A stretch of DNA of 64,000 bases from an uncultured Chloroflexia bacterium (GTDB lineage Bacteria > Chloroflexota > Anaerolineae > Anaerolineales > DRKV01), in contig CAWGNX010000002.1 of assembly GCA_963824065.1 (NCBI GenBank), positions 488,794 to 552,793 on the forward strand. The letters run 5' to 3'. Below are positions 4,794 to 33,653 of the stretch, piece after piece. Position 1 is the first letter of the stretch, and the number at the start of each line of letters is the position of its first letter. The notes beneath the pieces were generated by a model that was not told where the DNA came from, did not search any database, and was given only the letters and a program-made list of their open reading frames with translations. Made by a program: the position numbers and the translations under genes.

Positions 4794-5132
4794 GGAAGCG
4801 CTCCTTATCGCAAGTGCTATTCATTTAAATAAACGCATAAACGGGTCTGTTCTTCGGGATGCGATGTATGGTGCTTGAAAAGAAGACCCGCGTGGTCAGT
4901 TTTAGTATAGCGAAAATGGGGTTGCAATGCAATTCAGGTTTCGCAAGGAAACGTGCGGGAAGTACCCGCCAGGGATGACCTGCGGCCTGGCACCGGATTT
5001 TTTGGTGGGTAAGAAATATATCCGCCAAAGTTCATCCAAAAAATCCGAATGTGGGACGTTGACAGGGACGCTGAGCGGACGCCACTTCCTTAAACTTGGG
5101 TCTAGATGGATCAACCTGGAAGGAGTACCACC

Positions 5133-6353
5133 ATGGAAAACCGCAACCGCCAACTGATGTTCTTGTTCCTCAGCAGTTTCTTAATCCTTTTTGTTGGGAT
5201 GGGGTTGTTCCCCGTCCTGCCGCTGTTCGTGGCCCGCTTCGGGGCCGATTCCGGCCAGATTGGCCTGTTTTATGCGTTGATTTTTCTGGCCAATGGAGCC
5301 GGACCGGTGGCCGTGATGGGGCTGCACAGGCGCACTTCGCCGCGCGCGCTGTTTATTGGCGTGGGATTGCTGGGCATTGCTGCCCTCGCTCTGACGGCCT
5401 TCGTGAGCACCTTCTGGCAGATGGCTGCCCTGTTGGCAGCTGCCTGGTTCGTGGGAGGGGTCGTCCTGGCCCAGGTGAGTATTTTCACAGGGCGGGTGGC
5501 GAGCGGGGCCAGCCGTGGGCGCGCCTTCAGCCTCATGTCGTTGGCAGCACCTGTAGGAGCTCTGGTGGGCGGTACGTTGATTGGCAGAATCGTCACAGCG
5601 GCCGGTTTCCCGGCGCTGTTCCTGGCTCTGGCAGGATTATGGATTGGCTTACCGCTGGTAGGTGTCTTTGGCCTGCGCGGCATTCCTGACAGCCACCCGG
5701 TTATGCAGAACGATTCACCCCAAGCTCAAAGCGGCCGCTCCTTCGACCTGCGGTTCTACGCTCTGGCCCTGTCCAGCCTGCTGGCTGGCATGGGGATTTC
5801 GATCACCCGCCTGGGCGCGCCGTTGATGATGAAAGGGATGGATTTCAGCGCCGCCCAGATGGCAAGCACTGCCACGGTCAGCGGTCTGGTAGCGATCCCG
5901 GTGGTCTTACTGATGGGCATGCTGTCTGACCGGATTGGGCGCGGCCGGTTGTTGATGGCGGGCTACGGCATGGCAGCCGCTGGCGCGGTCATCCTGAGCG
6001 CGGCATCGAGTGTGGTCCATTTTTGGGTAGCTGCCACACTGATGCTGGTGGCATTCGGCATCAACAACGGCCTGGCTCAAGCACTGGGCACCGACCTGCT
6101 GGAAAGCGCACAGCTGGCGCGCGGCCTTTCCCTGCTCAATACGATCAAATCTGGGGCAGCAATTGTCAGTTTCGCGGTCACGGGCTACCTGGTGGTGGCC
6201 TTCGGAGCGCCGCAGGTGGCTGTGCTGGCGGCTGTGCTCCCTGCGGCTGCATTCGGTCTCTTGGGAGTACTGCAGCGGCTGCCAGTCGGGATGAACCTGG
6301 CTGCGTTGAGCCCAGGACGGCGGGTTGCTGCCCCCAAACCAGTTGAATGCTGA
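5133..6353 (+). CDS. MFS transporter
   Basis: ORF 5106..6353. The ATG at 5133 is preceded by GGAAGGAG. The product is multi-span and hydrophobic with an MFS-like layout (MENRNRQLMFLFLSSFLILFVGMGLF...). Confidence 0.8.
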   Translation: MENRNRQLMFLFLSSFLILFVGMGLFPVLPLFVARFGADSGQIGLFYALIFLANGAGPVAVMGLHRRTSPRALFIGVGLLGIAALALTAFVSTFWQMAALLAAAWFVGGVVLAQVSIFTGRVASGASRGRAFSLMSLAAPVGALVGGTLIGRIVTAAGFPALFLALAGLWIGLPLVGVFGLRGIPDSHPVMQNDSPQAQSGRSFDLRFYALALSSLLAGMGISITRLGAPLMMKGMDFSAAQMASTATVSGLVAIPVVLLMGMLSDRIGRGRLLMAGYGMAAAGAVILSAASSVVHFWVAATLMLVAFGINNGLAQALGTDLLESAQLARGLSLLNTIKSGAAIVSFAVTGYLVVAFGAPQVAVLAAVLPAAAFGLLGVLQRLPVGMNLAALSPGRRVAAPKPVEC

Positions 6354-6462
6354 GACGGGTAAACGACCACCCAGATTAATGATCAGCCCGGGTGAGGGGT
6401 TTAACCCTTCACCCGGGCTTTTGGTTTTCCTTCACGCTGCCGCGGCCCGCTGTTATTGCGGG

Positions 6463-9400
6463 TCACAGCTGGAAATCATCCAGCTGCATGGATCGGGCAC
6501 GCTGCTCGGCGGCTTCGAAAGCGGCCGGCTCCATTTCTGCGGCGAGCTCGGTCAGCAGGGCTTGCATGCGGTTGCGCACTTCATACCAGGTATTGACGTG
6601 CCCGCTGACAAATGCCGCGATCACGACAGCCTGTTCGCGATCTCCGTGGACCCCGAATAGATTGGCTGCGCCGCTCAAGACCAGCAGCGTAAGGCCATTG
6701 TGCCAGACGTTGCGCGATGCTTCCAGCGCCTCCTTCAGCCATTCCAGAGCTTCACCATATTCCCCCAACCCGGTGGCTGCCCGGCCGATGCCATACATCG
6801 CATAAGCCGCGCCCCATTGATGGCCCACTGCCTGTGCCCGCTCCAGGCTGAGCAAAAACTGCTTGTGGGCGCGCGCGTAATCCCCGGTCTGCAGTGCCAG
6901 GTCACCCAAACCGCGGTGGAAAAAGGTGTAACCATTGCGGTCGTTGACCTGCTCGAACAACGGCAGAGCGCGGTCATAGGCCTGGTATGCTTGTTTGGTA
7001 TCGCCTGTCACCCGGTAATATTCGCCCAGCTCCCACACGCTCCAGGCCTCGCCGAACACATCGCCAGATTGGCGGCAGTATTCCAGACTCTGCATACGGG
7101 TCTCGAACGCCCGCGGCAGGTCTCCGGCGCGTAAGTGCCTCGTAGCTTTCCTTTGAAAGCACGCGCGCCGCCAGCCAGGTATGCCCGCTCTGGGCGTAGG
7201 TATCGCTCATGGCCCGGTAGTGGGTGAAAGCTTCGGGATACTCACCCAGCTCCAGGTGCAGGTCGCCGATCTGGAAGTGGATATCATTGGCAATGATCCA
7301 ATCTCCGGCGTTGACGAGTTTCTCCTGGGCGTTTTCCCAGGCTTCGATCGCCTGGCGGAAACGGTCCTGGAAGCGACGCAGGTTCCCAAGGGTGCGCAGG
7401 GCGTGCCCGGATTCGCGCATGTCACCCAGGCGGTTGAACAGCTCGAATGATTCGGTGCAGATCAAATCGCACTCATCCATTTCGGCTTCACTGACGAAAT
7501 TCAGCTCGTAAAGCTGTCCGAGCATGATCAGGGCAAATGCCAAGTCCCACTGGCGGTTTTCCTGGCGAAATTGGGGGACGAGTTCCTGCAAGGCTGCCCG
7601 CCCGGCGGGCAGGTCCACCAGGCGCCCATAAAGATAGCACAGCATCACCCGCCAGAAGCACAGGTTTGTGCGCATAGCCAGTGTTTCAGAGCGTTCCCAG
7701 GCTCTTTTCAGCGGTTCGATGTTGGGCGGCGGCAGCATGCCAAACGCCTCGAAGCGCACGGGGTAGCCGTTTTTGTAGAAGGCACCTTCAGCGGTGTAAA
7801 CGATGGCGATGGCGCGTTTATCTTCTTCTTCCTGGGGATCATCCGGCAGGATGGACTGGACGGCTTGCAGCAGCGGCATCAGCTCCGAGGCGCGCGAGCG
7901 CGATTCGCAGTAACGGAAGACTCCTGGCAGCATCCAGTAGATGATAATTTCATACCGGCCCTGTTCCGCCAGCCACATCCAGGCGATCCGGATGTGATCG
8001 AATTCGTTGCGGATAGCCGTAAAGGCCTCCTTTTGATCTGGACTGCGGATGGCAATGTTCTGTTCTGCCAGGAAATCGGCGAAGTATGTGGCATGTCGGA
8101 AGCGCACATCTTCCCAAACTGACCGGTCTTCCTGAAGTTTTTCATAAGCATACTGGCGCAGCAGTTCATGGATGACAAACCGGCCTTCCGACGTGCGCTG
8201 CAGCCAGGATTTATGCACCAGTCCCAACAGGGACTTGAGCGGGGCGTCGCTGATCGAGCGCGCCGCTTCCAGGCTGAAACTTCCCAAAAATACCGACATC
8301 CGCGTCACGGCTTCCTGCTCAGCCGTGAGTGAGCAAATTCCAGGAGCTGTTGAATACGGCACGGATGCTGCGCTGCCGGTCGGGCATGTCGTCCCAATCT
8401 GTTTCGAGAAAATCCAGGCTGCGCCGGATTTCACTGGCAACTTCGTCCAGCCGCAGCATTTCGAGCCAGGCAGTTGCCAGCTCAATGCCGAGCGGCATAC
8501 CCTGAACCAAATCGCAAATTTCAACCGCACCGCGCACATTTTCGGCCGTCACAGCGGAAATCGGGTTGGAAACGCCGGGCGCATTGCTCAAATAATTTAA
8601 GCGCGGAATACTCTTCAAGGCGCTGGTCAAGCTCCACCAGTCCGGATAGCTCAAACGCCTGGGGAACCCGCAGCCCTTCCAAAGGTAAACGAATTCGGAG
8701 TGCAGGTTCAGCCGCGCTCGGGAGGTGACCAGGATGCGGACGTGTTCCGTTTCAGCCAGCACCCGCCCGATCGCATGCACGCTTTCTTCATCCAGCAGGT
8801 GCTCGAAATTGTCCAGAACAAAGAGCATCCGGCGCGGTTTCAGGAACTCGATCAGCTGGTCGGTCTGGTTTTCCTGGCTGCCCTGGAAACTGAAATTGAT
8901 CAGCTCGTCGATTGCTGGCAGGATCGCGCCGGTGGATGAAAGCGGCGCCAGGGGGACAAACCACACGCCGTCCTGCAAGCCTTCCGGGAAGACCGCCGCC
9001 AGGCGGGTGGCGGCCTCGATCGCCAGGCGGGTCTTGCCGCTCCCTCCAGGCCCCAGGATGGTAACCAGGCGATGGCTGTCCTGACTGCACAGCAGGGATT
9101 CCAGAGCGGCTAATTCGTCCACCCGGCCAACAAAATCGGTGGTCTGGGGGGGCAGGTTGAACAGCCGGCTGCCAGCCTGGCCCGCAGTTGGCTCCACCGG
9201 ATGTGCGGCTGGCGCCGCGACTGCCTGGGCTGGGGCAGCCTGAACGGGCGGCGCGGCCGGTAAGGGAAACGGAGGCTGCGGAAGGGCGGCCTCAACAATA
9301 TCCGGTGGCGCCAGGGTGCGCGCCTGGATGGCCTCGTACAGCCCGGTGGTGGCCTCTTCTGGGGCTATTTTCAGCTCCCTTTTCAGGGTGCGGGTGAGCT

Positions 9401-10085
9401 CCTGGTACTGGCGCAAAGCGGCTGCCTGCTGCCCAGACCAGGCGTAGAGCTGCATCAGCTGGCGGTGAGCTGGCTCGTGCAGGGGATCAAGGGCCAGCCA
9501 GCGGCGGGCGTACTCGCTGGCGCGCTCGAAATTTCCCTCGCGCGTGTGCCAGATGATGAGATGCTGCAAAGCCTCTGCCAGCTTCTGGCGCAGGTTTTCG
9601 TTTTCAAAAAACTGCCATTCGTCATACGGGGCGCTGTCAGGCAGGCTGAACCCGGCCATAAAATCCCCGCCGTAAAGTTCAACAGCCCGCGTGAGGGCCG
9701 AGAAGCAGGAGGGACACAGCGGAGTTGAGCCTTCTCGCAGACTGTGACCATGGGAAATTGCCAGATCCACCAGTCGGTGGAAAATGGCCACGTCAGTCGT
9801 CACCCCGGCCTCGTCCGCGATCCGCACCTGATCGCCTTCGAGATCTACAAATTCCTCCCCGATGGTCTGCCGCAGGCGGGAAATATCTCGGCGCAGGTTG
9901 GCTCTGGCACCGCTCTGGTCATAATCGGGCCAAAAAAGGGTCGCCAGAGCATCCCGGCTGTGCGGCCGGTCGGTGACGACCAGGTATGCCAGCAGGGCAA
10001 GCACTTTTTTTCGCCCTAGATTGACGGCTTCGCCTTCACTCAGAATACGCGGTGCGCCCAGTAAATTTACATGCAGCTGTACCAT
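6463..10085 (-). CDS. SARP/BTAD-type activator domain + NB-ARC ATPase + TPR repeats (AfsR-like STAND regulator); frame broken twice
   Basis: ORF 8319..10085 carries LLGAPRILSEGEAV...LLAYLVV...FWPD (winged-helix/BTAD) and Walker A ILGPGGSGKTRLA. It continues in ORF 6974..8539 (LTAEQEAVTRMSVFLGSFSLEAA..., TPR-like) and ORF 6463..7095 (TPR-like). The shifts are near 8320-8330 and about 7130. Confidence 0.7.
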
Positions 10086-11040: not shown

Positions 11041-12090
11041 TTAGGCCGACAGGTCCTCGACCAGGTGGCGCAGGGTGCGCGCGTCGAGGTCTTTTTTATC
11101 CAGATAAGCTACCGCACCCGCTTCGATGCTCAGACGGTGAAATTCTCGGTCGGGGTAAGCACTGATCATAATGATCCGCGATTGGCTGGAAACCGACTTG
11201 ATGCGGCGGGCGCACAGGATGCCATCCTCTTCCCCCAGCACGACATCCACGAGCGCCAGTTGGGGTTGCAGGCGCTGTGCGATCCGCACGGCGGTGTTGC
11301 TGTTCTCGGCCTGGTAAAGGTTGGTGTGCGGTTGAACTTTACCAAGCACCCGCTGGAGCTGCTGCAAGTAGCGGTGATTGTCGTCGACCAGCAGGATGGA
11401 AATCCCATGGATGTGAAGAGGTTCGTTGGGGCGCTGCAGGGCCAGTTCGTGACCCGCGATCCCCAGCACTTCGGGGTGCTGGCTGACGTAATTAACAGCT
11501 TCCAGACGGCTGTTTACACCCAGCTGCCTGTACATGCGTGTCAGGTGGTTCTCCACGGTCTTGATACTCAGGTTCAGGTCCAGGGCGATTCTCTGGTTAT
11601 CCAACCCATCCTTGAGCAGCCGCAGGATATCGCGCTGGCGCAGGGTCAGGGTAGGTGGCGTGGTATTTGGACGGGCACCCCCCACGAGCTTGGTTATCAG
11701 CGGGCCAGAAATCCAGCGTTCGCCCTCCAACACGCGCTGCAAGGCCAGCTTCAAGTCGCTCAAGGGCTGATCCTTGAGATGGTAGCCGTTTATCCCAGCC
11801 TGGAGCAGCTCGTGGACGTAAAATTCGTCGTCGTACACGCTGACCACCAGGATTTTTATCGCAGGGTAGAGGGCGCGGATTTCGGGCAGGGTCTTAAGTG
11901 GGTTGAATTCGGGCATACTGATGTCGACCAGGATGCAATCGGGCTGGTTGGCATGCAGGCTTGCCAGCAAGGAAGGACCGTCATCAACTTCGGCGATTAC
12001 TTCCAGATTTTCGATCTCTTCCACAACCGTCCGGATGCCTGCCCGGACAATTGCATGGTCATCAGCGATTAAAATACGGGTTATTGCCAC
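11041..12090 (-). CDS. Response regulator with REC - LuxR-type HTH - second REC architecture
   Basis: REC1: ILIADDH...ILVDISMP. HTH: LTLRQRDILRLLKDGLDNQRIALDLNLSIKTVENHL. REC2: ILLVDDNHRYL...LALVDVVLGEEDG...IIMISAY. Confidence 0.85.
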   Translation of the reverse strand: MAITRILIADDHAIVRAGIRTVVEEIENLEVIAEVDDGPSLLASLHANQPDCILVDISMPEFNPLKTLPEIRALYPAIKILVVSVYDDEFYVHELLQAGINGYHLKDQPLSDLKLALQRVLEGERWISGPLITKLVGGARPNTTPPTLTLRQRDILRLLKDGLDNQRIALDLNLSIKTVENHLTRMYRQLGVNSRLEAVNYVSQHPEVLGIAGHELALQRPNEPLHIHGISILLVDDNHRYLQQLQRVLGKVQPHTNLYQAENSNTAVRIAQRLQPQLALVDVVLGEEDGILCARRIKSVSSQSRIIMISAYPDREFHRLSIEAGAVAYLDKKDLDARTLRHLVEDLSA

Positions 12091-12169
12091 AAGTGCATTC
12101 TATCACGGCGAAAATCGAGGCTGCGCAGGACTCGCCAAAAATCGGACTTAGGAGTATATTCTGTACCAA

Positions 12170-12189
12170 ATTAGGGGAAATCCCCTAAT
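12170..12189. promoter_or_regulatory. Palindrome attaggggaaatcccctaat in the divergent regulator/transporter intergenic region
   Basis: 9-bp arms with a 2-nt centre, read directly. Located between 12090 (start of the regulator gene) and 12424 (start of the binding-protein gene). Confidence 0.3.
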
Positions 12190-12423
12190 CCGAATAAGGG
12201 AGCATAAGGAGGAGACTTATTAATAATTTGTTAAACTAGTACCGACTATGCTCATTTTCACTTCTATGTCACGCGCCATATACCCAATGATGACAATCCA
12301 GCATAGAACAAAATCCCCATAATCTTTTCCCAAACAGCCAGGAGGTGGCCTATTTGTGGATACGGTTCCAGCAATCGCCAGATATCCTGATTCCAATTTT
12401 TCTATACCTAAGGAGAGACTGTA

Positions 12424-14653
12424 ATGCGTAAGAAGATACTTCGTCCGATCACGTTGCTAATGACCCTGATTATCCTGCTGAGCCTGGTTTTGTCTGCCTG
12501 CACGCCAGCTGCGACGACCACGCCCGAAGCAACCGAAGAAGCTGCGATGACCGAAGAACCCGCGGCGACCGAGCCACCCGCGGGTGAAACACTTGCGGTG
12601 GGCATCGTCCTGCCGACGAAAGATGAGCCGCGTTGGATCCAGGATGAGACCCGCTTCCGGGAAGCATTGGGAGCAGCGGGCTATGATGTAGAAATCCTGT
12701 TCAGCCAGGGCTACATCCGCTACGGAAAAATCCAACGTCGAAGACCTGATCACCAAGGGCATCAAAGTGCTGATCATCTGCCCGCAGGATGGCACAGCCG
12801 CGGCCGCCGCTGCTGAAGCCGCCCGCGATGCGGGTGTGGCTGTGATCTCGTACGACCGCCTGATCCGCGACACCGACGCCGTCGATTACTACGTGACCTT
12901 CGACAGCATCGCCGTAGGCGCCCAGCAGGCCCAGTACCTGGTGGACAATGCCGAGGGCACCGGCAACCCGCTGTACCTGTATGCGGGCGCCGCCTCCGAC
13001 AACAACGCCTTCATCTTCTTTGAAGGTGCCTGGGGTGTGCTGCAGCCGCTGATCGCGGACGGCACCTTCGTGGTGAAGAACTCCGACCAGGCGATCGCGC
13101 TGATGGACAAAGCCGAGCTGACCCGTGACGAGATGGCCGGGATCATCGGCCAGATCACGACCAACTGGGACTTCAACACCGCCAAGAACCTGGCCGAAGC
13201 CAACCTGACCGCCACAACTGCGACGGATAAGGGCCGGGTGTTCATCCTGGCCCCGAACGACGGCACCGCCCGGGCGATCGCAGATGCTTTTGCTGCTGAC
13301 CCCGATGTGACCAAGTACTTCGTGACCGGTCAGGATGCCGAAAAGGCTTCCGTGCAGTACATCATCGACGGCAAGCAGTCGATGACCGTGTTCAAGGATG
13401 TGCGCACGCTGGTGAATGACGCCATCAATGCTGCCGTGGCCCTGCTGGAAGGCAATGCACCAACCGCCAGTGGCGCCTACAACAATGGTGTGATCGATGT
13501 CCCGGCGATCCAGTCGCCAGTGGTCACCGTCGACGCCGGACAACGTCGTGGCGGAGCTGATCGATTCGGGCTATTATTCAGCCAGTGACTTCACCGGTTT
13601 GGAAGCGCTGCGCGGCTGCCCCAGAGCTGGTGTCCGGCCGGGTGGGCATCGTCCTGCCGACAAGGATGAGCCGCGCTGGATCCAGGATGAGACCCGCTTC
13701 CGCGAAGCGCTGGCGAAACAGGGTTACGATGCAGAAATCCTCTTCAGCCAGGGTCATCCGCCAAGGAAAAGGCCAACGTCGAAGACCTGATCACCAAGGG
13801 CGTCAAAGTGATCATCATCAGCCCGCAGGATGGCACAGCCGCGGCCGCTGCTGCTGAAGCCGCCCAGCGATGCCGGTGTGAGCCGTGATCTCGTACGACC
13901 GCCTGATCCGCGACACCGATGCGGTCGACTACTACGTGACCTTCGACAGCATCGCCGTGGGCGCCCAGCAGGCCCAGTACCTGGTTGACAAGGCCGAGCG
14001 GCACCGGCAACCCGCTGTACCTGTATGCGGGCGCTGCCTCCGACAACAACGCCTTCATCTTCTTCGAAGGCGCCTGGAGTGTGCTGCAGCCCAAGATCGC
14101 CGACGGCACCTTCGTGATCAAGAACTCCGAGCGAGGCGATTGCGCTGCAGGACAAAGCCGACGCTGACCCGTGACGAGATGGCCAAGATCATCGGCCAGA
14201 TCACGACCAACTGGGACTTCAACACCGCCAAGAACCTGGCCGAAGCCAACCTGACCGCCGCAACCGCGGCCGACAAGGGCAACGTCTTCATCCTGGCCCC
14301 GAACGACGGCACCGCCCGGGCCATCGCAGATGCCTTCGCTGCTGACACCGATGTGACCACGTACTACGTCACCGGTCAGGATGCCGAGAAGGCTTCCGTG
14401 CAGTACATCATCGACGGCAAGCAGTCGATGACCGTCTTCAAGGATGTGCGCACGCTGGTGAATGACAGCCATCAATGCTGCCGTGGCCCTGCTGGAAGGC
14501 TCTGAGCCGACAGCCAGTGGCGCCTACAACAATGGTGTGATCGATGTCCCGGCGATCCAATCGCCAGTGGTCACGGTCGACACCGACAATGTCGAGGCAG
14601 AGTTGATCGATTCCGGCTATTATCCAGCCAGTGACTTCACCGGACTGCCGTAA
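12424..14653 (+). CDS. Lipoprotein sugar-binding protein (PBP type I, ChvE/XylF-like) with two tandem binding domains; many frame breaks
   Basis: Lipoprotein-type signal LLMTLIILLSLVLSAC. Module VGIVLPTKDEPRWIQDETRFREAL...ISYDRLIRDTDAVDYYVTFDSIAVGAQQAQYLV...APNDGTARAIADAF...TGQDAEKASVQYIIDGKQSMTVFKD occurs twice. Only the second copy ends in a stop (DFTGLP*). Fragments appear in ORFs 12424, 12767, 13497, 13585, 13885, 13985 and 14462. Confidence 0.7.
12598..14650 (+). repeat. Tandem direct duplication, two units of about 1.04 kb (the two sugar-binding modules)
   Basis: ggcatcgtcctgccgac starts at 12601 and again at 13645. Long stretches are near-identical at nucleotide level (for example 12841-12990 versus 13885-14030). 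Confidence 0.8.
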
Positions 14654-14671
14654 GTTTCACGCATAAGTGTT

Positions 14672-14701
14672 GGAGTAGGGGCGGGTATCCGCCCCTACTC
14701 C
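14672..14701 (+). terminator. Strong intra-operon hairpin after the binding-protein gene (13-bp stem, loop gtat), with no T-tract
   Basis: ggagtaggggcgg gtat ccgcccctactcc, read directly. This position is typical of mRNA-stabilising or partial terminators after SBP genes. Confidence 0.5.
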
Positions 14702-14760
14702 TGTAGCCTTCAACCGGACGGAGCCTAAAACTCACCTGCCATTTTCAGACCGGAGCTGCC

Positions 14761-16291
14761 ATGAGCACGTCCTATTTTGGAGATGCAGAACATTACGAAG
14801 GAATTCCCCGGCGTGAAGGCGCTGGATAATGTCAGCTTTCAGGGTCGCGCAGGAGAGATTCACTGTCTGGTCGGCGAAAACGGCGCCGGCAAATCCACCC
14901 TGATGAAGGTATTAAGCGGCGTTTATCCGTACGGGGAGTACAGCGGGGATATCATGTTCGATGGGCAGGTCCAAAAATTTAACAGCATCCGCGACAGCGA
15001 AAAAGCCGGGATTGGCATCATCTATCAGGAGCTGGCGCTTGTCCCTGAGCTGACGGTCTACGAAAACATTTCTCTCGGCCACGAAATTAAGTAGCGGCAT
15101 TTCCGATCGACTGGAATGAAACGATCAAGAAAGCCGGGCGAGATGATCCGGAAAGTGCAGCCTGGATGTCAACCCGGACGCGAAGGTCAAGGATCTGGGG
15201 GTCGGCAAACAGCAGTTGGTCGAGATTGCCAAGGCGCTGAGCAAGGAAGTCAAGCTGTTGATCCTGGACGAGCCCACTTCGGCATTGAACGAGATCGACG
15301 TCGACAACCTGTTCGACCTGCTGCGCGACTTGAAGGAACAAGGCGTGACTTGCGTCATGATCACGCACAAGCTGAAGGAGGTCATGGAGATCGCCGATTC
15401 GGTGACGGTTCTGCGCGATGGCAAGACCGTGGTCACCCTGGACGCGCACAAAGGGGAAGTGTCCGAAACTGTGCTTATCAAGCACATGGTGGGCCGTGAA
15501 ATCGAGAATATCTACCCCACTCGCGAACATGTCCGCTCGGATGAGGTGGTGCTTTGAAGTCAAAGATTGGAATGCCTACGATCCCCAGCTCGGGCGGAAC
15601 ATCCTGAAAGACGTTAATTTTAATGTGAAAAAAGGCGAGATTGTCGGCTTTCGCCGGGCTGATGGGCTCCGGGCGAACGGAGCTGGCATTGAGCATCTTT
15701 GGGAATCCAACTGGCTTCCAGACCCACGGGGATGTATTAATCCAGGGTGAGAAAATGAGCTTTAATCACCCGAAGGAAGCCATGAAGGCCGGAATTGCTT
15801 ATGTCTCTGAAGACCGTAAAAAAAATGGTTTGATCCTCATCCAGGATGTCAAGCAAAATATCACGCTGGCGAATTTGCGGGAAATCTCGAAACGCGATGT
15901 CGTGGATGACAATACAGAAATCAACGTCGCCAACGAATATAAGAATTCTTTGAACATCAAAACGCCCAGCATCGAACAGATGGTCGTCAATTTGAGCGGC
16001 GGCAACCAGCAGAAGGTTTCGGTGGCGAAGTGGTTGTTTGTCAAGCCGAACGTTCTGATCCTGGATGAGCCCACCCGTGGGATTGACGTTGGCGCTAAGT
16101 TCGAAATGTATACCATCATGAATCGGCTCGTCGAACAGGGCATGAGCATTATCATGATTTCGTCGGAGCTGCCGGAAATCTTGGGCATGAGCGATCGTGT
16201 TTATGTTGTCTCCAGCGGGGAAATCACGGGCGAGCTTCCCGTCGAAGAAGCCACCCAGGAAAAAATTATGCACCTGGCAACCAGGAACTGA
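14761..16291 (+). CDS. Sugar ABC transporter ATP-binding protein with two fused NBDs (CUT2 family, RbsA/MglA/GguA-like); several frame breaks
   Basis: NBD1: [16 protein letters not shown], Walker [33 protein letters not shown]2: [39 protein letters not shown]. Pieces are ORFs 14777..15094, 15216..15557 and 15641..16291. The ATG at 14761 is out of frame with the first piece across a T-run. Confidence 0.8.
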
Positions 16292-16301: not shown

Positions 16302-17489
16302 ATGACATTCATCCAGGATCTTCAGAAGGTTCTCCGGCAGAACATCCGCGATTATGGCATGTTCATCGCCTTGTTTGTCATCTGGACGATCTTTGCTATC
16401 CTGACCGATGGAATTTTCATCTCGTCCCGCAATATCAGCAACCTGCTCAATCAGACCGGCTACATCGCTGTCCTCGGTGTCGGCATGACGTTGGTCATCG
16501 TCATTCGCCATATTGACCTGTCGGTTGGTTTCCTGGCCGGGTTCCTGGGTGCGATTGCTGCCATTGCCATCGCGTTTTGGGGCTGGCCGGCCTGGGCGGC
16601 GATAATCCTTGTGCTCGTACTCGGGCTGCTGCTGGGATTTATCCCCGGTGTCCTGGTAGGCCGGGTGGGGATCCCCGCTTTTGTGGCCACACTTGCCGGC
16701 TGGTTGATCTATCGCGGCGCCATTTTGTTAGTGACCGAATCGACCGGCACGATCATTGTGCCCAACGACGCGTTCAATGCGATTGGGAATGAATATATTC
16801 CGGATATTCCTGGCCTGGAGAATTTTTTACCCGGGGTGCATAAATTGACCCTGCTGCTGGGCATCCTGGCAATTATCCTGTACATTTACAGCTCACTCCG
16901 CAGCCGGCGGACAAAGCAAGCCTACAACTTCGAAGTGCTGCCAATGAATATTTTTATCCTGCAGCTCGTGTTCGTCTCAATCCTGGTGGGCGGAATAACC
17001 TGGGTGCTGGCAGGGTACAATGGCTTATCCTGGACTGTGGTTATCATGTTGATCGTGGTGGCGATTTACTATTTTGTTACCACCAAGACCGTGCTGGGCC
17101 GGCACATCTATGCGATTGGCGGCAACCCGGAAGCCGCCCAGTTGAGCGGCGTCAGTGTCAAGCGCATCACTTATCTTGTATTCGGCCAGATGGGGATGCT
17201 GGCGGCGCTCTCGGGCATTTTGTTCACCTCCCGCCTGCAGTCCGCCACTACAACCGCCGGTACCCTGTTTGAGCTCGATGCCATCGCGGCGGCATTTGTG
17301 GGTGGAGTTTCGGCGGCTGGCGGCGTGGGGAAAGTGACCGGGGCGGTTATCGGTGCCCTGGTGATGACTTCCCTGACCAGCGGCATGAACCTGATGGGGA
17401 TCGGGATTTCGTACCAGTACATTGTGCGTGGGATCGTGCTGGCCGCGGCGGTGATCTTCGATGTTGCCACACGCAGCGTGAGAAAATAG
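16302..17489 (+). CDS. Sugar ABC transporter permease (BPD_transp_2 type, GguB/XylH-like)
   Basis: The ATG at 16302 is preceded by AGGAG at 16291-16295. Polytopic product: MTFIQDLQKVLRQNIRDYGMFIALFVIW... Confidence 0.85.
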   Translation: MTFIQDLQKVLRQNIRDYGMFIALFVIWTIFAILTDGIFISSRNISNLLNQTGYIAVLGVGMTLVIVIRHIDLSVGFLAGFLGAIAAIAIAFWGWPAWAAIILVLVLGLLLGFIPGVLVGRVGIPAFVATLAGWLIYRGAILLVTESTGTIIVPNDAFNAIGNEYIPDIPGLENFLPGVHKLTLLLGILAIILYIYSSLRSRRTKQAYNFEVLPMNIFILQLVFVSILVGGITWVLAGYNGLSWTVVIMLIVVAIYYFVTTKTVLGRHIYAIGGNPEAAQLSGVSVKRITYLVFGQMGMLAALSGILFTSRLQSATTTAGTLFELDAIAAAFVGGVSAAGGVGKVTGAVIGALVMTSLTSGMNLMGIGISYQYIVRGIVLAAAVIFDVATRSVRK

Positions 17490-17522
17490 CACGCCGAAAT
17501 TGCTCGTAATTTTGGTCACAAG

Positions 17523-17568
17523 GCGGGTCAGAAGCGACGGGGTCTCCAGGTCTTCTGCCCCGCTTTTT
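17523..17568 (+). terminator. Hairpin (gcgggtcagaag / cttctgccccgc, one mismatch) followed by ttttt, after the permease gene
   Basis: Read directly, 34 nt after the stop at 17489. Confidence 0.5.
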
Positions 17569-17705
17569 GTCAGCGCATGCAGAGTAATTGCTTCTGGATG
17601 GCAAACCCCAGCGGGAATAATCCCTCAAGTAAGGGGCTGCGCCCACCTCAGAATGGCATAAGCGCTTACCCTACGCTGGTGATTCATGGAAAATTGAAGA
17701 TACCT

Positions 17706-19293
17706 ATGGCCAGAATCACTTCTCAAAGTCCAATCACTATCCAAGTTCTATGGCAACCTGAAAGCCCTGGACAGGGTAACCTTTAAACTTCAGCCGGGTG
17801 AAATTGTTGGCCTGGTAGGACGCCGGGGAAGCGGGAAATCGACGCTGCTGCACCTGATTGGGGGAGTAAGCCCGCCCTCAGCCGGTAAAATTTTTTTGCA
17901 GGGTCGCGAGATATTGTTCACCTCCGTGGGACAGGCGCGCCAGAGCGGCGTAGAGCTGGTGCACCAGGTACCTCAGCTGGTGGAACTCCAATCGGTGACT
18001 CAGAACATCTTCCTCGGGCGCGAGCTGGTGAAACACACAAAGCTGGGAATGCCAGATTGGGAAAGGATGTATCATCTCGGGCGTGAGTTTCTGGCGGACT
18101 TTGGCTTGCCCCAGATTTTGCTCGCCGAATCGATTGGTAATTTGAATGATGAACAACGCCAGGTGGTCGCCCTGGCACGGGCGCTTTGCCAGCCGCTCAC
18201 CCTGCTTTTGATGGACGATATGCTCTCCCACTTGAATTTCAAACGCCAGGAAATTTTGCTCAACCGCATCCACGAAGCCGCCGCGCAGAGCATGGGTGCG
18301 ATTATCTGCAGCGAAGATTTAAAACACCTGTTCAATATTACCGATCGCATCCTGGTGCTGTACGAGGGGCGGCTCATTGCCGATCGCCGTACGGCAGACT
18401 GTACTCCCCGGGATGTCGTCGAGCTCGTGGTGGGAGCGAAGAACCAGAAACAGGTCACCCCGGTGATCTGGGCGCTTGAAAGCTACCACCGCGCCCAGCA
18501 GCAGTCCGAAGAGCTGTTCAGAGCCCAGACCGAACTTCATGAAAACCTGGAGGCCAGCGATTCGCTCAACCGCCAGCTGATCGAAAAATTAAGCGACCAG
18601 GTGCAGGCGATGGACCGCCTGAACGCGGCCCTGCAGGAAACCCAGCTGCGGCTCCTGACGGAGAGGGAAGAGGAGCGCAAGTACCTGGCGCGTGAGCTGC
18701 ACGATTCGGTGATCCAGGATCTGCTGTCGATGAACTACCGGCTCGAGGAAGCCGAATCCGATGAAAGCTCGGAAGAGCAGCGCAAAGAGCTGTATGCCAT
18801 CCGGATTTCTATCCGGCAGGTGGTGAGCGACCTGCGCCAGCTCTGCCGCGACCTGCGGCCTCCAACGATTGATAACCACGGGTTATCGTCTGCAATTCGC
18901 TCCCTGGTGCAGGAATGGGAAGAACGCACCGGCATTGCTATCTATGCAGAGATAGACAATAACCTTGGGCGTTTGCCCGAGTACATCGAGCTGTCGGTGT
19001 TCCGCATTATCCAGGAGGGGTTGAATAACGTCAGCAAGCACGCCGAAGCACAGCGGGTGAGGATCCTGATGGAGCGCACCCCAATGGATTACCTGCGGAT
19101 CCGGATTTCAGACGACGGTCAGGGATTCAGCGCGCTGCCTAACCTGGCGGAGCTATCAGCCCAGAAACATTTCGGCCTGGTTGGCATCAGCGAACGGGCG
19201 GCGCTGCTGGGGGGCAGCATGCAGATTGAGTCACCGGAACACGGAGGTCTGGTGCTCCAGGTGGAAATCCCCAGCCCGTATCCCTCCGGCTAG
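17706..19293 (+). CDS. Degenerate ABC-type nucleotide-binding domain fused to a HisKA_3/HATPase_c histidine kinase (no transmembrane segment)
   Basis: Frame 1 reads ESLLKVQSLSKFYGNLKALDRVTFKLQPGEIVGLVGRRGSGKSTLL (Walker A) and continues uninterrupted into ORF 17896..19293. That ORF has VHQVPQL...NIFLGRE, LNDEQRQ, LLLMDDML, ICSEDL, then the H-box YLARELHDSVIQDL and the ATPase region IIQEGLNNVSKHA...DDGQGF...GLVGISERA. The only start candidate, ATG 17706, is 1 nt out of frame. Confidence 0.7.
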
Positions 19294-19409: not shown

Positions 19410-21125
19410 TTACCTGACGATCACCTGCTGGGCATAGACGCTGGAAGAATTTCCGGCTGCATCAACAGCGAACCAGTGCAGCGTGGTGGTTGACATAAAC
19501 TGCAGGATCTCACCCGGCTCGCGAATCCCGCTGGAGTTGTAGACAGGTGAATCCATGGTCGGTTGGCTGCCATCGGTTGTGTAGTAAACCGAGGCAGGCT
19601 CGGATGTGGCGATCTTGACCATCGCCAGGCCGTAGAATGGCTTACGCCCAAAGCGGGCATCGGCCGCGTCCGTGAGCCAGGCAGTTGGCGGAGTGCTGTC
19701 GCGATCCACATCGAGGGCCAGCTCGAGCATTTCGATCAGCCCGTTTGAAAATTCCTGCGATTCGGCATAGGCTTCCGTCCAATTCGGTTGGAAGCTCGTG
19801 CCAAACTCGAAATCCCAGGCATAGATGTCATTATCGTAATACAAATGGTCTCCCGAGTTACCGGCGGCAGAGTACAGCACGTCAATGACAGGTCCCGTGC
19901 GGGCAGGCGTAACCACCAGGCCGCGATACTCGCGGATGGCCTGGAGGATGCGCGCTGATGCGTAGTAGAAGAAGTTCTCCTCACCGAAGGAAGGGCGCGG
20001 CAGGCTGATCCGCCTGGGGACGATGTAGGCTGCCGGCGACCACATGAAGTAATTGCCGGAGGAGTGGATGTTCATGGAAAACTTGATATTGGGGAAAGCG
20101 TCGGCCACCCAGGCCACGTTTTTCGATTCGGGCTCGGAGAGTTCAGCAGGACCCGAATACGTTGTGCCGACGCAAGAATCATCTGCACCAAAGTACCCAT
20201 CAAACAATGAGCCAACGGGGTAATTACGATTTACATCCACCCCAAAGGAATTGCGGCGGTTCAAGTCGTTGTTGTCACCACGCGGGCAGTAATTGGTCAT
20301 ATTCTTGCGCTGGAAGCTGGCATCGTAAAAGTTGTAATGCCCGCCGTCCGGGTTCACCGAAGGCAGGATGAAGATATCCAGGTTGTTAAGCAGCTCCTTG
20401 GAGGCGCCGCTGGCATAGTTCCGCAATAGGCGCTCGGCGGTTTCGATGGTCACCAGCGGGGGCACCCACTCGCGTGCGTGTTCCTGGGCGTAGAAGAAGA
20501 CTCCGGGGCGAGACCCATCGCGGTGCTTACCAATGCGCAGGATTTTGACCTGGAAAGGCTCGCGGGAAATCTCCGCCGGGGCACTCAAATAATCGCTCAT
20601 CGCGATCCTCTCGGGGGCCACTAGACCGGTAGCCGAGCTGCCGCGGTACGGGTCGGCATATACCAGTGCACTGGCAGAAGGATCGGCGTTGAGCGCTGCA
20701 ATCACCTGGGCGGCGGTGGAGGTGGTGGCGCCGGTTGAATCTGTCGCCAGCGAGACGAGGATGTCGTTCCCGTTTACGCTCACCGACAGCGGGCTGTCTG
20801 CTGCACCCGGATCGACGGCGGAGACGGTGATGTCATTTCCGCCTTCATGACCCCATGCATAAGACGTCAGGGCAACCCGCGTGCTGGTGGTCGATCCCAG
20901 CAGGCCCATCGCCTGGCGCCGGTAGCCGTTGGTCAGGTACGGCGCGTCGATGATTTCTGCCAGGTCCCGGAACTCGGCAGCCAGGGCTTCGATCCGCTCG
21001 TAAAGCTGAGTGGGATCCATGTAGCTGGAGACATAACTGCTGGAGTAGGTCGCGAACTCGCCATCTGGAACCCATTCGCTAAAAAAGGCTGTGTCGCTGC
21101 CGCCTTCACTGGAAACCACGGTCAC
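19410..21125 (-). CDS. M14 zinc carboxypeptidase with a C-terminal chitobiase/Fn3-associated-like domain
   Basis: FFYAQEHAREWVPP (M14 HxxE zinc motif context) and VYYTTDGSQPTMDSPVY near the C-terminus. The same frame stays coding-like upstream of GTG 21125 until the in-frame TAA at 21195-21197. Confidence 0.75.
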   Translation of the reverse strand: MTVVSSEGGSDTAFFSEWVPDGEFATYSSSYVSSYMDPTQLYERIEALAAEFRDLAEIIDAPYLTNGYRRQAMGLLGSTTSTRVALTSYAWGHEGGNDITVSAVDPGAADSPLSVSVNGNDILVSLATDSTGATTSTAAQVIAALNADPSASALVYADPYRGSSATGLVAPERIAMSDYLSAPAEISREPFQVKILRIGKHRDGSRPGVFFYAQEHAREWVPPLVTIETAERLLRNYASGASKELLNNLDIFILPSVNPDGGHYNFYDASFQRKNMTNYCPRGDNNDLNRRNSFGVDVNRNYPVGSLFDGYFGADDSCVGTTYSGPAELSEPESKNVAWVADAFPNIKFSMNIHSSGNYFMWSPAAYIVPRRISLPRPSFGEENFFYYASARILQAIREYRGLVVTPARTGPVIDVLYSAAGNSGDHLYYDNDIYAWDFEFGTSFQPNWTEAYAESQEFSNGLIEMLELALDVDRDSTPPTAWLTDAADARFGRKPFYGLAMVKIATSEPASVYYTTDGSQPTMDSPVYNSSGIREPGEILQFMSTTTLHWFAVDAAGNSSSVYAQQVIVR

Positions 21126-23172: not shown

Positions 23173-24777
23173 GTGTCCAATATCCAGAGCTACCCCATGC
23201 CGAACCACCTGCCCACGCTGAATGAGTTATGTCGTCTGGCATTCAGCGACCCTGTGCATTGGATTGCCGGTGATCCAGGCGGGGTTGAGCAAGTTCAATG
23301 GGTCACCTCAGCGCCTGATGAAGTCAAACTTGATGATTTGCTCCTGGTCGATGGCAACCGGCAGGACCTGGAGGTGCTGAGCGGCGAGATGAGCCGCAAG
23401 GGTGCGGCAGCTATACTGCTGGTTGATCTTAAACCCGGGAGTAAACCGCAGGTGAGCGGAAAACTTCCGGTGGGCGCAATCACAGAGGCTGGCGATCTAT
23501 CCAGTATTCTGCGCAGGCTGCTCACCATCGTGATCAACCACCGGGTTGCCCTGATGGAACGCGGGGTCCAGATTCATGCACATCTCTCCCAACTGGCAGC
23601 GGAGGGGAACGGACTGGTGGGGATTGCGCAGGCGATGAGTGAGATTACCGGGCGAGGCATCTTAATTCAGGATAAACGCTTGCAGATCCAGGTGCAGTGC
23701 TCCTCCCACTCGCTGCTTGCCTACTGGGATGAAATACTGAAGCATCTTACGGAGCTCAACAGCCTGCCTGAAAACCTGCGAGATCGCAAACAGGCTGGTA
23801 AATATCCCAATGTTTTTACTCAGGAGATCCCCGGGGGATTGCGCCGCCTGGTCTCACCGATCATCGTCAGTGAAGTCGCCCGGGGCTACCTTTCCCTGGT
23901 GGGCATGGCAGATGAGATCGATTCCCTTGACCAACTGGTGGCAGAGCAGGGTGCGCTGGTCTGCGCCGTTGAAATGGCGCGCACCAAAGCTGTGCGTGAG
24001 ACAGAAAAGCGATTAAAAGGGAACCTGCTGACGGCTTTATTACAGGATGAGCTCTCGCCGCGTGATGCTTTGTTGTGGGTCCAGGAAATGGGCATCAACC
24101 CGGGTCGCCCTTACGTTGCAATGCGCTTCGCCTGGGAGGGAAACCCGGCACCCTCCATGCGGCGGATGGAAACAAGAATCAATGGGGCTGTTGCCCGCCT
24201 GGGACTAAAAACATTAATCAGCTCGATGGAGAAAGAAATTATTTGTTTCTGCCCACACGACCCTGCCCGCCATAATGCCGAGGCTGCCCGGGCTCTCGGA
24301 AGGGCTGCTCTGGTCATGGAAGCCGGTGAGCCTGCGGGTGTACAGCTCCTGTGCGGCATCGGTGCGCCAGCCAGCGATCTCTCTGAATGGCGGCGTTCAT
24401 TTCGCCAGGCCGGTCAGGCATTGGAAATGGCGCGCCGCCTGGGTACAAAGGAACCACTCTATTTTCCAGACTTATCGGTTTATCGTTTGCTCACGCAAAT
24501 TGAGTTTAATCCTGAGTTAGAAATCTTCCTTAAAGAAACACTGGGACCACTGCTGGAGTTTGAGGGTGGACCGGAATTACTGCATACGCTTGAAGCCTAT
24601 TTCGAACATAATGGGAATTTATCCCAGACTGCCGAGTCCCTATTCATCCATCGCAATACGCTGATTTACCGGATGGAGCGCATCTCAGAAATCCTGGTAT
24701 TAGACTTCGACCGCCCAGAAACCAGGCTTGCGGTGCAGCTAGCGCTTCACGTTAATCGGATGTTGGGCAGCTCCTGA
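23173..24777 (+). CDS. PucR/CdaR-family transcriptional regulator
   Basis: C-terminal PucR-type HTH: LLHTLEAYFEHNGNLSQTAESLFIHRNTLIYRMERI. Confidence 0.8.
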   Translation: MSNIQSYPMPNHLPTLNELCRLAFSDPVHWIAGDPGGVEQVQWVTSAPDEVKLDDLLLVDGNRQDLEVLSGEMSRKGAAAILLVDLKPGSKPQVSGKLPVGAITEAGDLSSILRRLLTIVINHRVALMERGVQIHAHLSQLAAEGNGLVGIAQAMSEITGRGILIQDKRLQIQVQCSSHSLLAYWDEILKHLTELNSLPENLRDRKQAGKYPNVFTQEIPGGLRRLVSPIIVSEVARGYLSLVGMADEIDSLDQLVAEQGALVCAVEMARTKAVRETEKRLKGNLLTALLQDELSPRDALLWVQEMGINPGRPYVAMRFAWEGNPAPSMRRMETRINGAVARLGLKTLISSMEKEIICFCPHDPARHNAEAARALGRAALVMEAGEPAGVQLLCGIGAPASDLSEWRRSFRQAGQALEMARRLGTKEPLYFPDLSVYRLLTQIEFNPELEIFLKETLGPLLEFEGGPELLHTLEAYFEHNGNLSQTAESLFIHRNTLIYRMERISEILVLDFDRPETRLAVQLALHVNRMLGSS

Positions 24778-32188: not shown

Positions 32189-33653
32189 ATGATCAGGAAT
32201 TTATTGATGCCTACCTTTGATAATCAAGCAAAGCGCAGCGCTGTGCCTGGCACTCAGACACTCTTTGAGAAAATCTGGAACAGCCACGTTGTAGCGCAGG
32301 AGAATGGCGCACCTGCGATCTTATATATCGATTTGCACCTCGTTCACGAAGTGACCTCCCCCCAGGCGTTCTCCGGCCTGCGCGAGCGCGGGCTTAAAGT
32401 GCGCCGCCCGGATCGCACCATTGCTACGATGGATCATTCAATCCCGACGACCGGGCTGGATTTGCCCATCGTAGACGAAATGGCAGCCAAACAGCTCCGC
32501 CAATTGGAGCTGAACTGCACAGATTTTGGCATTCCCCTCTATGACATGCATAATGATCAAAGGGGGATTGTGCATGTCATTGGTCCTGAACTGGGATTAA
32601 CTCAACCCGGAATGACCATTGTGTGTGGTGATTCGCATACCGCCACGCATGGAGCGTTTGGCGCCCTGGCATTCGGTATCGGCACCAGTGAGGTCGAGCA
32701 TGTGCTGGCGACCCAATGTTTGCTGCAGAACAAGCCGCAGACGTTTGCGGTTAACTTTGAAGGAAGCCTTGGCAGAGGTGTCACCGCCAAGGATATGATC
32801 CTGGCGCTCATTGCCGAGATTGGCATTGGGGGCGGCACCGGGATGGTGCTCGAATACCGCGGCTCGGCTGTCCGAGGGCTCGCGATGGAAGCCCGGATGA
32901 CTTTGTGCAACATGTCCATTGAGGCTGGCGCCCGGGCGGGCATGATTGCGCCGGATGACACGACAATTGCCTATCTTGCCGGACGGGAATTTGTACCTAA
33001 AGGCGCTGCCTGGGATGCGGCGGTTTCAGCCTGGAGGTCCCTTAAATCCGAATTCCGAAGCAAGCTTCGACCGGGAAATCACGCTGAATGTGTCAAACCT
33101 TCAGCCGATGATCTCCTACGGGACCAATCCGGGCATGAGCATCGCCATTGACCAGATCGTTCCCGACCCGGACCTGGAACCCAATTCGGCCCGGCGTACA
33201 GCTTTGAAGAAAGCCGTAGAATACATGGACCTGCGTCCCGGTCAGCCGCTGCTCTCCCACCCGATCGATGTGGTTTTTATTGGCAGCTGCACCAATTCAC
33301 GCATTTCCGACCTGCGCGAGGCCGCCAATCTGTTAAAGGGACACAAGGTTGCTCCTGGGGTGCGGATGCTGGTCGTTCCGGGTTCAGAACAGATCCGCCG
33401 CCAGGCTGAAAACGAAGGTTTAGACCAAATCTTCATCGAAGCAGGCGCCGAATGGCGGCGAGCAGGCTGCAGTATGTGTATTGCGATGAACGGCGACCAG
33501 CTCCAACCGGGCCAGTATGCCGTCAGCACCAGCAACCGCAATTTTGAAGGCCGGCAGGGTAAAGGCGGTCGCACGTTTCTTGCCAGCCCGCTCACCGCCA
33601 TCGCCAGCGCAGTTAGCGGGCGGGTATCCGATCCGCGCCAATTGATGGATTAA
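32189..33653 (+). CDS. leuC: 3-isopropylmalate dehydratase large subunit; one frameshift near 33050
   Basis: [31 protein letters not shown], then ISYGTNPGM...[11 protein letters not shown]...CSMCIAMN in ORF 32946..33653. The join is restored by removing one base in tccgaattccgaa. Confidence 0.9.

Follow-up and report, generated by a model that had tools for sequence, protein, structure and literature searches.

The DNA analyzed here is a 64,000-nucleotide stretch from an uncultured Chloroflexia bacterium (contig CAWGNX010000002.1, positions 488,794 to 552,793; hereafter the window), and the gene under study encodes a histidine kinase located next to the genes of a sugar transporter of the ATP-binding cassette (ABC) type. 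As judged from its sequence, the kinase is a soluble cytoplasmic protein whose sole input module is a catalytically disabled nucleotide-binding domain (NBD) of an ABC importer; by the same criterion it is a member of a conserved family and not a one-off. The full set of observations is best explained, with a probability of about 0.6, by docking of the fused NBD on a CUT2-type permease, by which importer parts and kinase would form a transporter-derived receptor. Two-component kinases are commonly taken to perceive external ligands along one of two routes, a membrane-spanning sensor domain of their own or contact with a separate transporter or binding protein; in the present case, the kinase has an ABC importer's motor domain as its input domain. 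If docking is confirmed, the conformational cycle of an ABC transporter can be wired directly into phosphorelay signalling, and the family would offer a natural system for studying how NBD movements become helix rearrangements. Docking would also account for the perception of extracellular sugars by soluble "orphan-sensor" kinases in the Chloroflexota, sugar fermenters that abound in sludge and sediments.

The kinase gene and its parts are located as follows:

17706..19293, + strand: NBD-histidine kinase gene, 528 amino acids after removal of one extra nucleotide just past the ATG
17706..18441, + strand: degenerate domain resembling the first NBD (NBD1) of CUT2 ATPases, residues 1-245 (Pfam, NCBIfam, motif alignment, AlphaFold2, Foldseek)
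17818-17844, + strand: Walker A motif GRRGSGKST (motif alignment)
18142-18156, + strand: LNDEQ, equivalent of the signature motif (motif alignment)
18202-18219, + strand: Walker B motif LLLMDD (motif alignment)
18442..18666, + strand: helical linker or signalling helix, residues 246-320 (AlphaFold2 helices, family conservation)
18667..19293, + strand: HisKA_3 dimerisation and histidine-phosphotransfer (DHp) domain with phospho-acceptor His332 (18700-18702), followed by HATPase_c (Pfam, invariant motifs)

In frame 1, translation can proceed from 17698 up to the TAG codon at 19291-19293 without any stop between the NBD and the kinase parts. An earlier reading of the same DNA, made from the letters without database searches (the sequence-only reading), had described one continuous frame for both parts and had named an intervening stop as the observation that would speak against it; none is present. 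A joining of two genes by a frameshift artefact was also considered and rejected, all homologues being contiguous. Within the kinase frame the first ATG, GTG or TTG codon is TTG 17896, and the mechanical list of open reading frames (ORFs) begins the gene there since no earlier start codon is in frame. The ATG at 17706 is indeed, as had been pointed out, one base off the kinase frame and terminates after 26 codons; deletion of one base restores the 528-residue kinase, starting MPESLLKVQSLSKFYG, and the full-length homologues (more than 118) begin M-x-E-x-L-L. As a result of this 1-nucleotide frameshift, the exactly matching public counterpart (P0001) is annotated as a 455-residue product with a GTG start and without Walker A. 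Many indels occur in the window, this offset among them; it is probably an assembly error.

In the Pfam scan the kinase matched ABC_tran (residues 21-172; 75.6 bits at a gathering score of 25, E 7.4e-21), HisKA_3 (residues 323-386, E 5.6e-13) and HATPase_c (residues 429-523, E 1.1e-8) and nothing beyond these; PAS and GAF domains were absent. In a Kyte-Doolittle analysis with a 19-residue window, the highest mean was 1.25 and no segment was hydrophobic enough for a transmembrane helix. The three-domain layout that had been assigned by eye, including the absence of transmembrane helix, PAS and GAF, is thereby borne out, and the NBD-like region did not fail the ABC profiles, an outcome that would have spoken against it.

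CUT2 sugar ABC ATPases of the RbsA/XylG/GguA type carry a tandem pair of NBDs in one polypeptide of about 500 amino acids. Residues 3-250 of the kinase align in NCBIfam to the N-terminal halves of XylG, RbsA, YtfR and GguA (E 4e-44 to 4e-37), and in blastp the domain scored 102-117 bits against NBD1 halves versus 71-75 bits against NBD2 halves; the NBD appears to derive from the N-terminal half of a CUT2 sugar ATPase. Identity as a CUT2 ATPase equivalog was rejected: the kinase has a single NBD and reached 150.8 bits against cut-offs of 699-850. The AlphaFold2 model (run with 59 relatives) had a per-residue confidence (pLDDT) of about 85-91 in the NBD, and its best PDB matches in Foldseek were NBDs of ABC importers (E about 1e-18).

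Compared with the neighbouring GguA-type ATPase, the NBD keeps Walker A GRRGSGKST, the Q-loop VHQ, the Walker B aspartate (LLLMD) and the CUT2-typical NIFLGRE; in contrast, LNDEQ replaces LSGGQ, LLLMDD (Asp171) replaces hhhhDE, and CSED replaces the SH of the H-loop. Each of these motifs had been read from the letters as they align here. The neighbouring tandem ATPase itself shows the asymmetry that is usual for CUT2 ATPases: its NBD1 has consensus Walker A and H-loop with a degenerate signature, its NBD2 a consensus signature with degenerate Walker A and H-loop. Among 118 relatives of the kinase, Walker A, the Q-loop glutamine, the Walker B aspartate and NIFLGxE are retained in most members. 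The fourth residue of the signature is glutamate (Glu149 in the window) in every member examined, the motif reading LSGEQ in a sister clade and LSDEQ or LNDEQ in the window's own clade, and the H-loop histidine is absent in all members examined. Many members of the sister clade have DEPT at the catalytic glutamate, which is aspartate instead in the clade of the window. In two kinases of Pelolinea/Anaerolineaceae type (L026 and P0126), Walker A is lost entirely (GVVDQEGQAILEL) with the rest of the domain and the linker kept. According to these motifs, ATP hydrolysis is predicted to be disabled across the family and nucleotide binding to be dispensable in some lineages, and in consequence the conserved role of the NBD would be structural coupling and not ATP chemistry; in most members the domain probably still binds nucleotide but cannot hydrolyze it.

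The retained motifs raise the question whether the NBD is a free cytoplasmic sensor of nucleotide or energy state, or an ATP-dependent dimerisation module, its linkage to transporter genes merely reflecting the regulon. Conservation of Walker A, the Walker B aspartate and the Q-loop glutamine in most members as well as the solubility of the protein would suit such a role, and the glutamate-to-aspartate exchange combined with loss of the H-loop histidine is typical of the ATP-binding, non-hydrolyzing sites of heterodimeric ABC exporters; heterodimeric ABC proteins and CFTR share these changes and a non-consensus signature as well. However, their domains remain in a transporter or channel polypeptide that has one active site, whereas a homodimer of the present protein would contain two degenerate sites and has a kinase as its output module. 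The invariant acidic residue, moreover, stands at the second glycine of LSGGQ, the position corresponding to CFTR G551D, and by this analogy should disfavor an ATP-sandwich dimer. Since the two proteins without Walker A have kept the rest of domain and linker, and since a free sensor would leave unexplained the dedicated permeases and binding proteins that are tightly spaced or overlapping with kinase genes in loci without an ATPase (see below), this alternative is regarded as unlikely.

The linker between NBD and kinase core is the part of the protein through which any state of the NBD would have to be transmitted in the docking model. In the AlphaFold2 model, which is fully soluble, it forms long helices of residues 246-278 and 285-351, the second reaching the H-box histidine and followed by the catalytic domain; the coiled-coil segment proposed earlier between NBD and H-box corresponds to these helices. 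The confidence of the linker is low, which is no surprise when a dimeric coiled coil is modelled as a single chain, and its heptad periodicity is only moderate (best register 0.56). The linker motif TPVIWALESYH is nearly invariant in the family. Mean pairwise identity amounts to 52.8% for the NBD, 67.5% for the linker, 69.5% for DHp and 61.5% for the catalytic domain, values which indicate that the degenerate NBD is under selection and that the linker is constrained like DHp. The kinase core has the features of the HisKA_3 (NarX/DesK/UhpB) class, i.e. the His-Asp pair of the H-box, the HisKA_3 profile and the N, G1 and G2 boxes, and its NCBIfam matches include UhpB. Across the 59 aligned members, no variation occurs in the H-box, N-box, DxGxG and GxxG motifs (H331/D332, N440, D468-G470-G472 and G489 in the numbering of the alignment, in which the initial methionine is missing from the first row; add one for protein numbering).

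Full-length relatives (about 528 amino acids, all three domains, 57-73% identity) made up 118 of the 120 best database matches, among which the named hits were Chloroflexi or Anaerolineae. When 1.84 billion representatives of clusters at the 50% identity level were searched exhaustively with HMMER, 5-6 full-length clusters of 31-56% identity were obtained. A genome scan with an H-box pattern, which gives a lower bound on the taxonomic range, yielded at least 24 full-length matches; those listed were all from Chloroflexota and comprised Anaerolineales, Thermoflexales, Caldilineaceae, Ardenticatenaceae, Candidatus Brachythrix and Ornatilinea apprima P3M-1 (locus L010). The last is a cultured carrier, which makes the proposed mechanism testable. 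Public labels of the relatives are generic ("ATP-binding cassette domain-containing protein") or denote a truncated kinase, so that the architecture is easily overlooked.

In the window, the kinase gene follows the genes for binding protein, ATPase and permease and lies across from a REC-HTH-REC (HTH, helix-turn-helix) regulator gene, an arrangement already recognized in the sequence-only reading and confirmed by Pfam:

11041..12090, - strand: response regulator of REC-GerE(HTH)-REC layout (Pfam; NCBIfam NarL/MctR class)
12091..12423, no strand: divergent intergenic region between regulator and transporter genes, likely regulatory
12424..14650, + strand: lipoprotein with two tandem Peripla_BP_4 domains (ChvE-like), about 6 frameshifts (Pfam on pieces)
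14771..16291, + strand: CUT2 tandem-NBD ATPase (GguA-like), at least 5 frameshifts, three ORF pieces
16302..17489, + strand: CUT2 permease (BPD_transp_2, GguB-like), intact (Pfam E 1.4e-32)
17520..17572, + strand: hairpin and U-run in the gap between permease and kinase genes (RNA folding)

The permease is 68-75% identical over its full length to permeases of related loci. A second permease paralogue or a dedicated binding protein was sought across the 64-kb window, and none was found. The REC-GerE-REC protein is presumed, from its position and co-occurrence, to be the cognate partner of the kinase: a regulator of this type (about 348 amino acids) and CUT2 transporter genes are present in nearly every related locus with enough flanking sequence.

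Two arrangements of the related loci can be distinguished. In type A (window, L001, L003, L005, L009-L013, L015, L019, L024-L026), the kinase gene adjoins a ChvE/GguA/GguB-like transporter in varying order, the binding protein is often double-domained, and a second permease is missing. In type B, a divergent CUT2 permease gene is located immediately 5' of the kinase gene on the same strand. In L018 and L023, a permease (ORFs of 336-361 amino acids with complete BPD_transp_2), a lipoprotein binding protein and the kinase form an operon with a gap of 3 nucleotides that is divergent from the regulator gene; an ABC NBD gene was sought within 10 kb on both sides of these operons, and none was found. 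L006 encodes, in this order, a binding protein, a permease and the kinase; a GTG at 5979, the candidate start of the kinase ORF, overlaps the permease stop (5982). In L068, a full transporter (binding protein, tandem ATPase ORF of 517 amino acids, permease) is divergent from a run of regulator, permease paralogue and kinase with gaps of 70 and 19 nucleotides, the latter from permease stop to kinase start. A canonical single NBD (GDNGAGKTT, LSGGQ, DEPT, SH) is encoded between the binding-protein and permease genes upstream of the kinase in L014, L016, L020 and L096.

The frequency of these arrangements was assessed in a metagenome scan with a narrow alignment of the sister clade as query, which retrieved 80 loci, all of this L018-like sister clade and not of the window's own clade; 67 of them, with at least 900 bp of upstream sequence, were usable:

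48 of 67 loci: permease and/or binding-protein gene in a co-directional run ahead of the kinase gene
19 loci: order regulator-permease-kinase
9 loci: order permease-binding protein-kinase
8 loci: order regulator-permease-binding protein-kinase
3 loci: run containing an NBD gene
19 of 67 loci: type-A-like, without such a run
45 of 67 loci: permease in the run and NBD gene absent from the run
26 of these 45 loci: NBD-like match nowhere in the locus

One of the 26 loci without an NBD-like match, L078, has a flank of 10 kb on each side. Permeases adjacent to kinase genes were 59-76% identical to the L018 permease, those of neighbouring full transporters 54-59%; this closer relationship suggests that the kinase-adjacent permease is a distinct, co-inherited paralogue.

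The recurrence of ATPase-less operons of permease, with or without binding protein, and kinase is the reason why the NBD most likely docks on the permease. Of the three partners for the NBD that had been considered in the sequence-only reading, the permease has gained in weight through these operons and through a second, PAS-containing kinase family (see below), the transporter ATPase has lost weight through the many loci without ATPase gene within 10 kb, and simple ATP binding through the two kinases without Walker A (L026 and P0126).

According to the docking model, a kinase dimer would seat its two NBDs on the cytoplasmic face of the CUT2 permease dimer, in the usual place of the ATPase, each NBD contacting the coupling helices of the permease as an input domain and not as a motor; the stoichiometry fits, with two NBDs per kinase homodimer for the two subunits of the permease. 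Outside, a sugar-loaded lipoprotein binding protein would dock and change the permease conformation (the binding proteins carry lipoprotein signal peptides, and in NCBIfam the neighbouring ones are ChvE-like), which would alter how far apart the two NBDs lie or how they are oriented; this change would be relayed by the strongly conserved helical linker to the DHp helices and would switch the protein between kinase and phosphatase activity towards the REC-GerE-REC regulator, which in turn would control the adjacent sugar-uptake genes. Docking, signal path and regulatory target are inferred from gene content. In the many relatives that have a permease, and often a binding protein, as dedicated paralogues, the assembly would be a receptor rather than a transporter. 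As a dedicated permease is missing from the 64 kb, the GguB-like permease (16302-17489) would have to serve both the window's kinase and the ATPase of the transporter, an extrapolation by which the kinase would report transporter occupancy much as had been proposed from the letters.

A more far-reaching version of the docking model, to which roughly even odds are given, regards the system as a whole ABC importer turned into a transmembrane receptor: a lipoprotein binding protein would signal through a non-transporting permease dimer to two hydrolysis-dead NBDs whose closure is coupled via the coiled-coil linker to autophosphorylation, the signature glutamate blocking or replacing the ATP sandwich so that the switch is free of nucleotide hydrolysis, and this conversion would have two or more origins, one in the Chloroflexota family and another among the NBD-PAS-kinases. 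Such a receptor would constitute a third general route by which outside signals reach a two-component kinase, beside membrane-spanning kinases and co-sensing by accessory proteins.

The gene neighbourhoods bear on two further readings. The partner of the fused NBD might be another NBD, either one of those in the transporter ATPase or a separately encoded single one, so that the kinase would read ATP turnover and sense flux at the motor. The canonical single NBDs encoded just upstream of the kinase in L014, L016, L020 and L096 would be suitable partners, as would the tandem ATPase near the kinase in the window and other type A loci; the absence of an ATPase gene from the retrieved 10 kb in many loci, and the intramolecular pairing of NBDs in tandem CUT2 ATPases, which should leave no free partner, make such pairing quite improbable. 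It could also be asked whether the NBD-kinase is a still-working transport ATPase that powers uptake as well as signalling, because it supplies the only NBD in the ATPase-less operons, and because many sister-clade members keep Walker A and DEPT and the PAS-containing family keeps SH. Given that the H-loop histidine is absent in every Chloroflexota member, that the signature is never LSGGQ, and that the window's clade also lacks the catalytic glutamate, with two degenerate sites in a homodimer, this is considered highly improbable.

Several points weigh against the docking model. About 19 of the 67 sister-clade loci, and the window, are without a dedicated permease, and the mechanism is extrapolated there. 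The canonical single NBD encoded in L014, L016, L020 and L096 makes other stoichiometries possible. Some ABC importers have their ATPase encoded elsewhere in the genome; the ATPase for the ATPase-less operons could likewise be encoded in trans, most loci being metagenome fragments. Where an extra permease faces a full transporter, it could be the second subunit of a heterodimeric permease. Finally, the window's kinase copy has a frameshift at its start codon and the transporter genes beside it are heavily frameshifted.

Docking on the permease is further supported by a separate family that repeats the layout. The search of representatives also retrieved proteins with ABC_tran, PAS, HisKA_3 and HATPase_c (P0150, P0139). 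In this NBD-PAS-kinase group (P0150 group, about 16 clusters), the NBD shares 55-65% identity with the NBD1 of genuine sugar ATPases, and SH of the H-loop is kept with a degenerate signature. In two of five inspected loci (L138 and P0278), the operon comprises binding-protein, permease, kinase and regulator genes but no ATPase gene; two have a full transporter downstream, and one ends at the contig edge. The ATPase-less layout thus appears, from these gene orders, to have arisen separately in this family. As a side observation, the REC-GerE-REC layout has been conserved together with the NBD-kinase of the Chloroflexota; the regulators of the NBD-PAS-kinases are plain REC-GerE proteins of 210 amino acids.

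Other fusions combine ABC_tran with GAF, HisKA and HATPase_c (P0225, 765 amino acids), with MalT-type TPR and GerE (P0129, 549 amino acids, 51% identical to the NBD and linker of the window's kinase) and, as a tandem, with IclR_C (P0245, 680 amino acids). These three may represent further signalling uses of CUT2 NBDs, or assembly chimeras.

Among known systems, the UhpABC system of E. coli, in which the transporter paralogue UhpC is the receptor for external sugar-phosphate and signals through the HisKA_3 kinase UhpB and a NarL-type regulator, resembles the proposed system in its kinase and regulator classes and in the dedicated transporter paralogue as receptor; it differs in that UhpC is a major facilitator superfamily protein, UhpB is embedded in the membrane, and neither a binding protein nor an NBD takes part. 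In PstSCAB-PhoU-PhoR, too, the state of an ABC importer is sensed via its NBD by the cytoplasmic part of a kinase, but the contact is made via the adaptor PhoU and a PAS domain, active PstB is retained, and there is no fusion; for the general theme a review is available (PMC6978683). In the Bce modules (BceRS-BceAB of Bacillus subtilis), a kinase without its own ligand domain perceives via an ABC transporter (PMC3023708). The window's system is similar to these modules in that the kinase lacks a ligand-binding domain, dependence on a transporter is proposed and the regulated genes would include those of the transporter. BceS, however, is an intramembrane-sensing kinase with two transmembrane helices that contacts the FtsX-type BceB of a resistance or export transporter, unfused and with an OmpR-type regulator, whereas the present kinase is soluble, of HisKA_3 type, covalently joined to an importer-type NBD and associated with a NarL-type regulator. 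Bce-type membership was rejected, as there is no transmembrane segment, the permease is BPD_transp_2, the binding protein Peripla_BP_4 and the regulator a GerE HTH protein; with all defining features absent, the earlier description as a fused version of Bce-type cross-talk holds only as an analogy.

The SLC5-domain kinases CbrA and CrbS (PMC7096432, PMC5715377) likewise unite a histidine kinase and a transporter module in one polypeptide. Their module is a secondary transporter's membrane domain; that of the present kinase is the soluble motor domain of a primary (ABC) transporter, whose membrane and binding-protein parts are encoded by separate genes. The binding-protein-dependent kinase systems XylFII-LytS, ChvE-VirA, LuxP-LuxQ and TorT-TorS (PMC8050422) share the use of a sugar-type binding-protein paralogue as ligand sensor of a two-component system that controls a CUT2 transporter. 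In those systems, however, the binding protein docks on an extracytoplasmic domain of a membrane kinase; as the present kinase has none, the permease would have to relay the signal. In the review of these kinases (PMC8050422), the terms "ATPase" and "nucleotide-binding" are absent, and permeases are mentioned only generally, in the introduction. No description of the ABC_tran + HisKA_3 architecture was found among 8 million full texts, which does not prove that none exists. The system is akin to transporter-coupled two-component sensing, yet it is a member of none of the systems compared.

The integrity of the window's copy has to be considered separately. About 11 frameshifts fall in the binding-protein and ATPase genes (3.9 kb) versus one in the permease, regulator and kinase genes (3.8 kb): permease and regulator are intact, and the kinase has a single indel at codon 2. 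In the ATPase gene, the frame changes 2>1>2>0 near 15090-15200 and 0>1>2 near 15555-15640; in the binding-protein gene, repeated frame changes were revealed by tblastn with the intact double binding protein of L003 (721 amino acids). The indels concentrate in the two genes with internal or paralogous repeats, and their uneven density could be due to poor polishing of repeated or paralogous sequence or to real decay.

That the copy is a pseudogene in a decaying operon where nothing functions would be in line with the frameshift at kinase codon 2, the at least 5 and about 6 frameshifts in the ATPase and binding-protein genes, and an indel density there far above that of permease, regulator and kinase. 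On the other hand, the remaining 527 kinase codons are open with all family-invariant residues kept, those segments of the broken genes that are in frame still share 67-85% identity with intact homologues, and genes for an aconitase-family protein and a STAND NTPase in the window are also broken, which points to errors of assembly or polishing; since the aconitase gene is of housekeeping type, such errors are favored over biology. Decay of this copy is therefore thought unlikely, though with an appreciable residual chance. Because of the frameshifts in the transporter genes and at the kinase start, this copy may or may not be functional; the conclusions at family level are independent of it.

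The aconitase-family gene is split into two overlapping ORFs (32189-33653, + strand; profile positions 1-271 and 268-463), and the STAND NTPase gene (BTAD + NB-ARC/NACHT + TPR, - strand) into three (8319-10085, 6974-8539 and 6463-7095). Next to the latter, within 3692-10085 on the - strand, an ORF with effector-associated domain 1 (EAD1; 4314-4793) and a trypsin-like peptidase ORF (3692-4360) are present, and the cluster is possibly a conflict or defence-type module.

In the gap between permease and kinase genes, RNA folding gave a stem of about 14 bp ending CCCCGCUUUUUG, then UUUUU, so that the hairpin plus T-run noted earlier ahead of the kinase is confirmed; the z-score of the whole 113-nucleotide stretch (-1.49) is unremarkable. 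A simple terminator scan did not flag the hairpin at 17520..17572, its loop being longer than 8 nucleotides. In the intergenic region 12091..12423, sites for the regulator were sought, and only weak, short and imperfect direct and inverted repeats were found, none convincing; one promoter-like match is located at 12132-12160. The regulator itself has its second receiver after the GerE HTH domain (about 348 amino acids in all), and both receivers have the acceptor aspartate.

The double binding protein is intact in L003 (12885-15050, 721 amino acids), L010, L011 and L026, and single-domain instead in L001, L019, L024 and L025; the duplication may provide for two specificities, or may divide transport and sensing between the two domains. 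In L017, an ORF of 853 amino acids (13135-15696) contains an NBD, a binding-protein fragment and an NBD, as if a tandem ATPase gene had been disrupted by an insertion or by misassembly. Downstream of the NBD-kinase locus in L068 (12317-16398, - strand), a reverse-transcriptase ORF lies beside a protein with NACHT and FGE-sulfatase domains, possibly a defence island.

Immediately downstream of the window's kinase gene, an M14 carboxypeptidase with a chitobiase/hexosaminidase C-terminal domain is encoded (19410-21125, - strand), followed by a PucR-type regulator (GGDEF_2 + HTH_30) at 23173-24777 (+ strand); both are probably unrelated to the module, as neither recurs in the related loci inspected. 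An ORF of 1622 amino acids extends over 40578-45446 (- strand).

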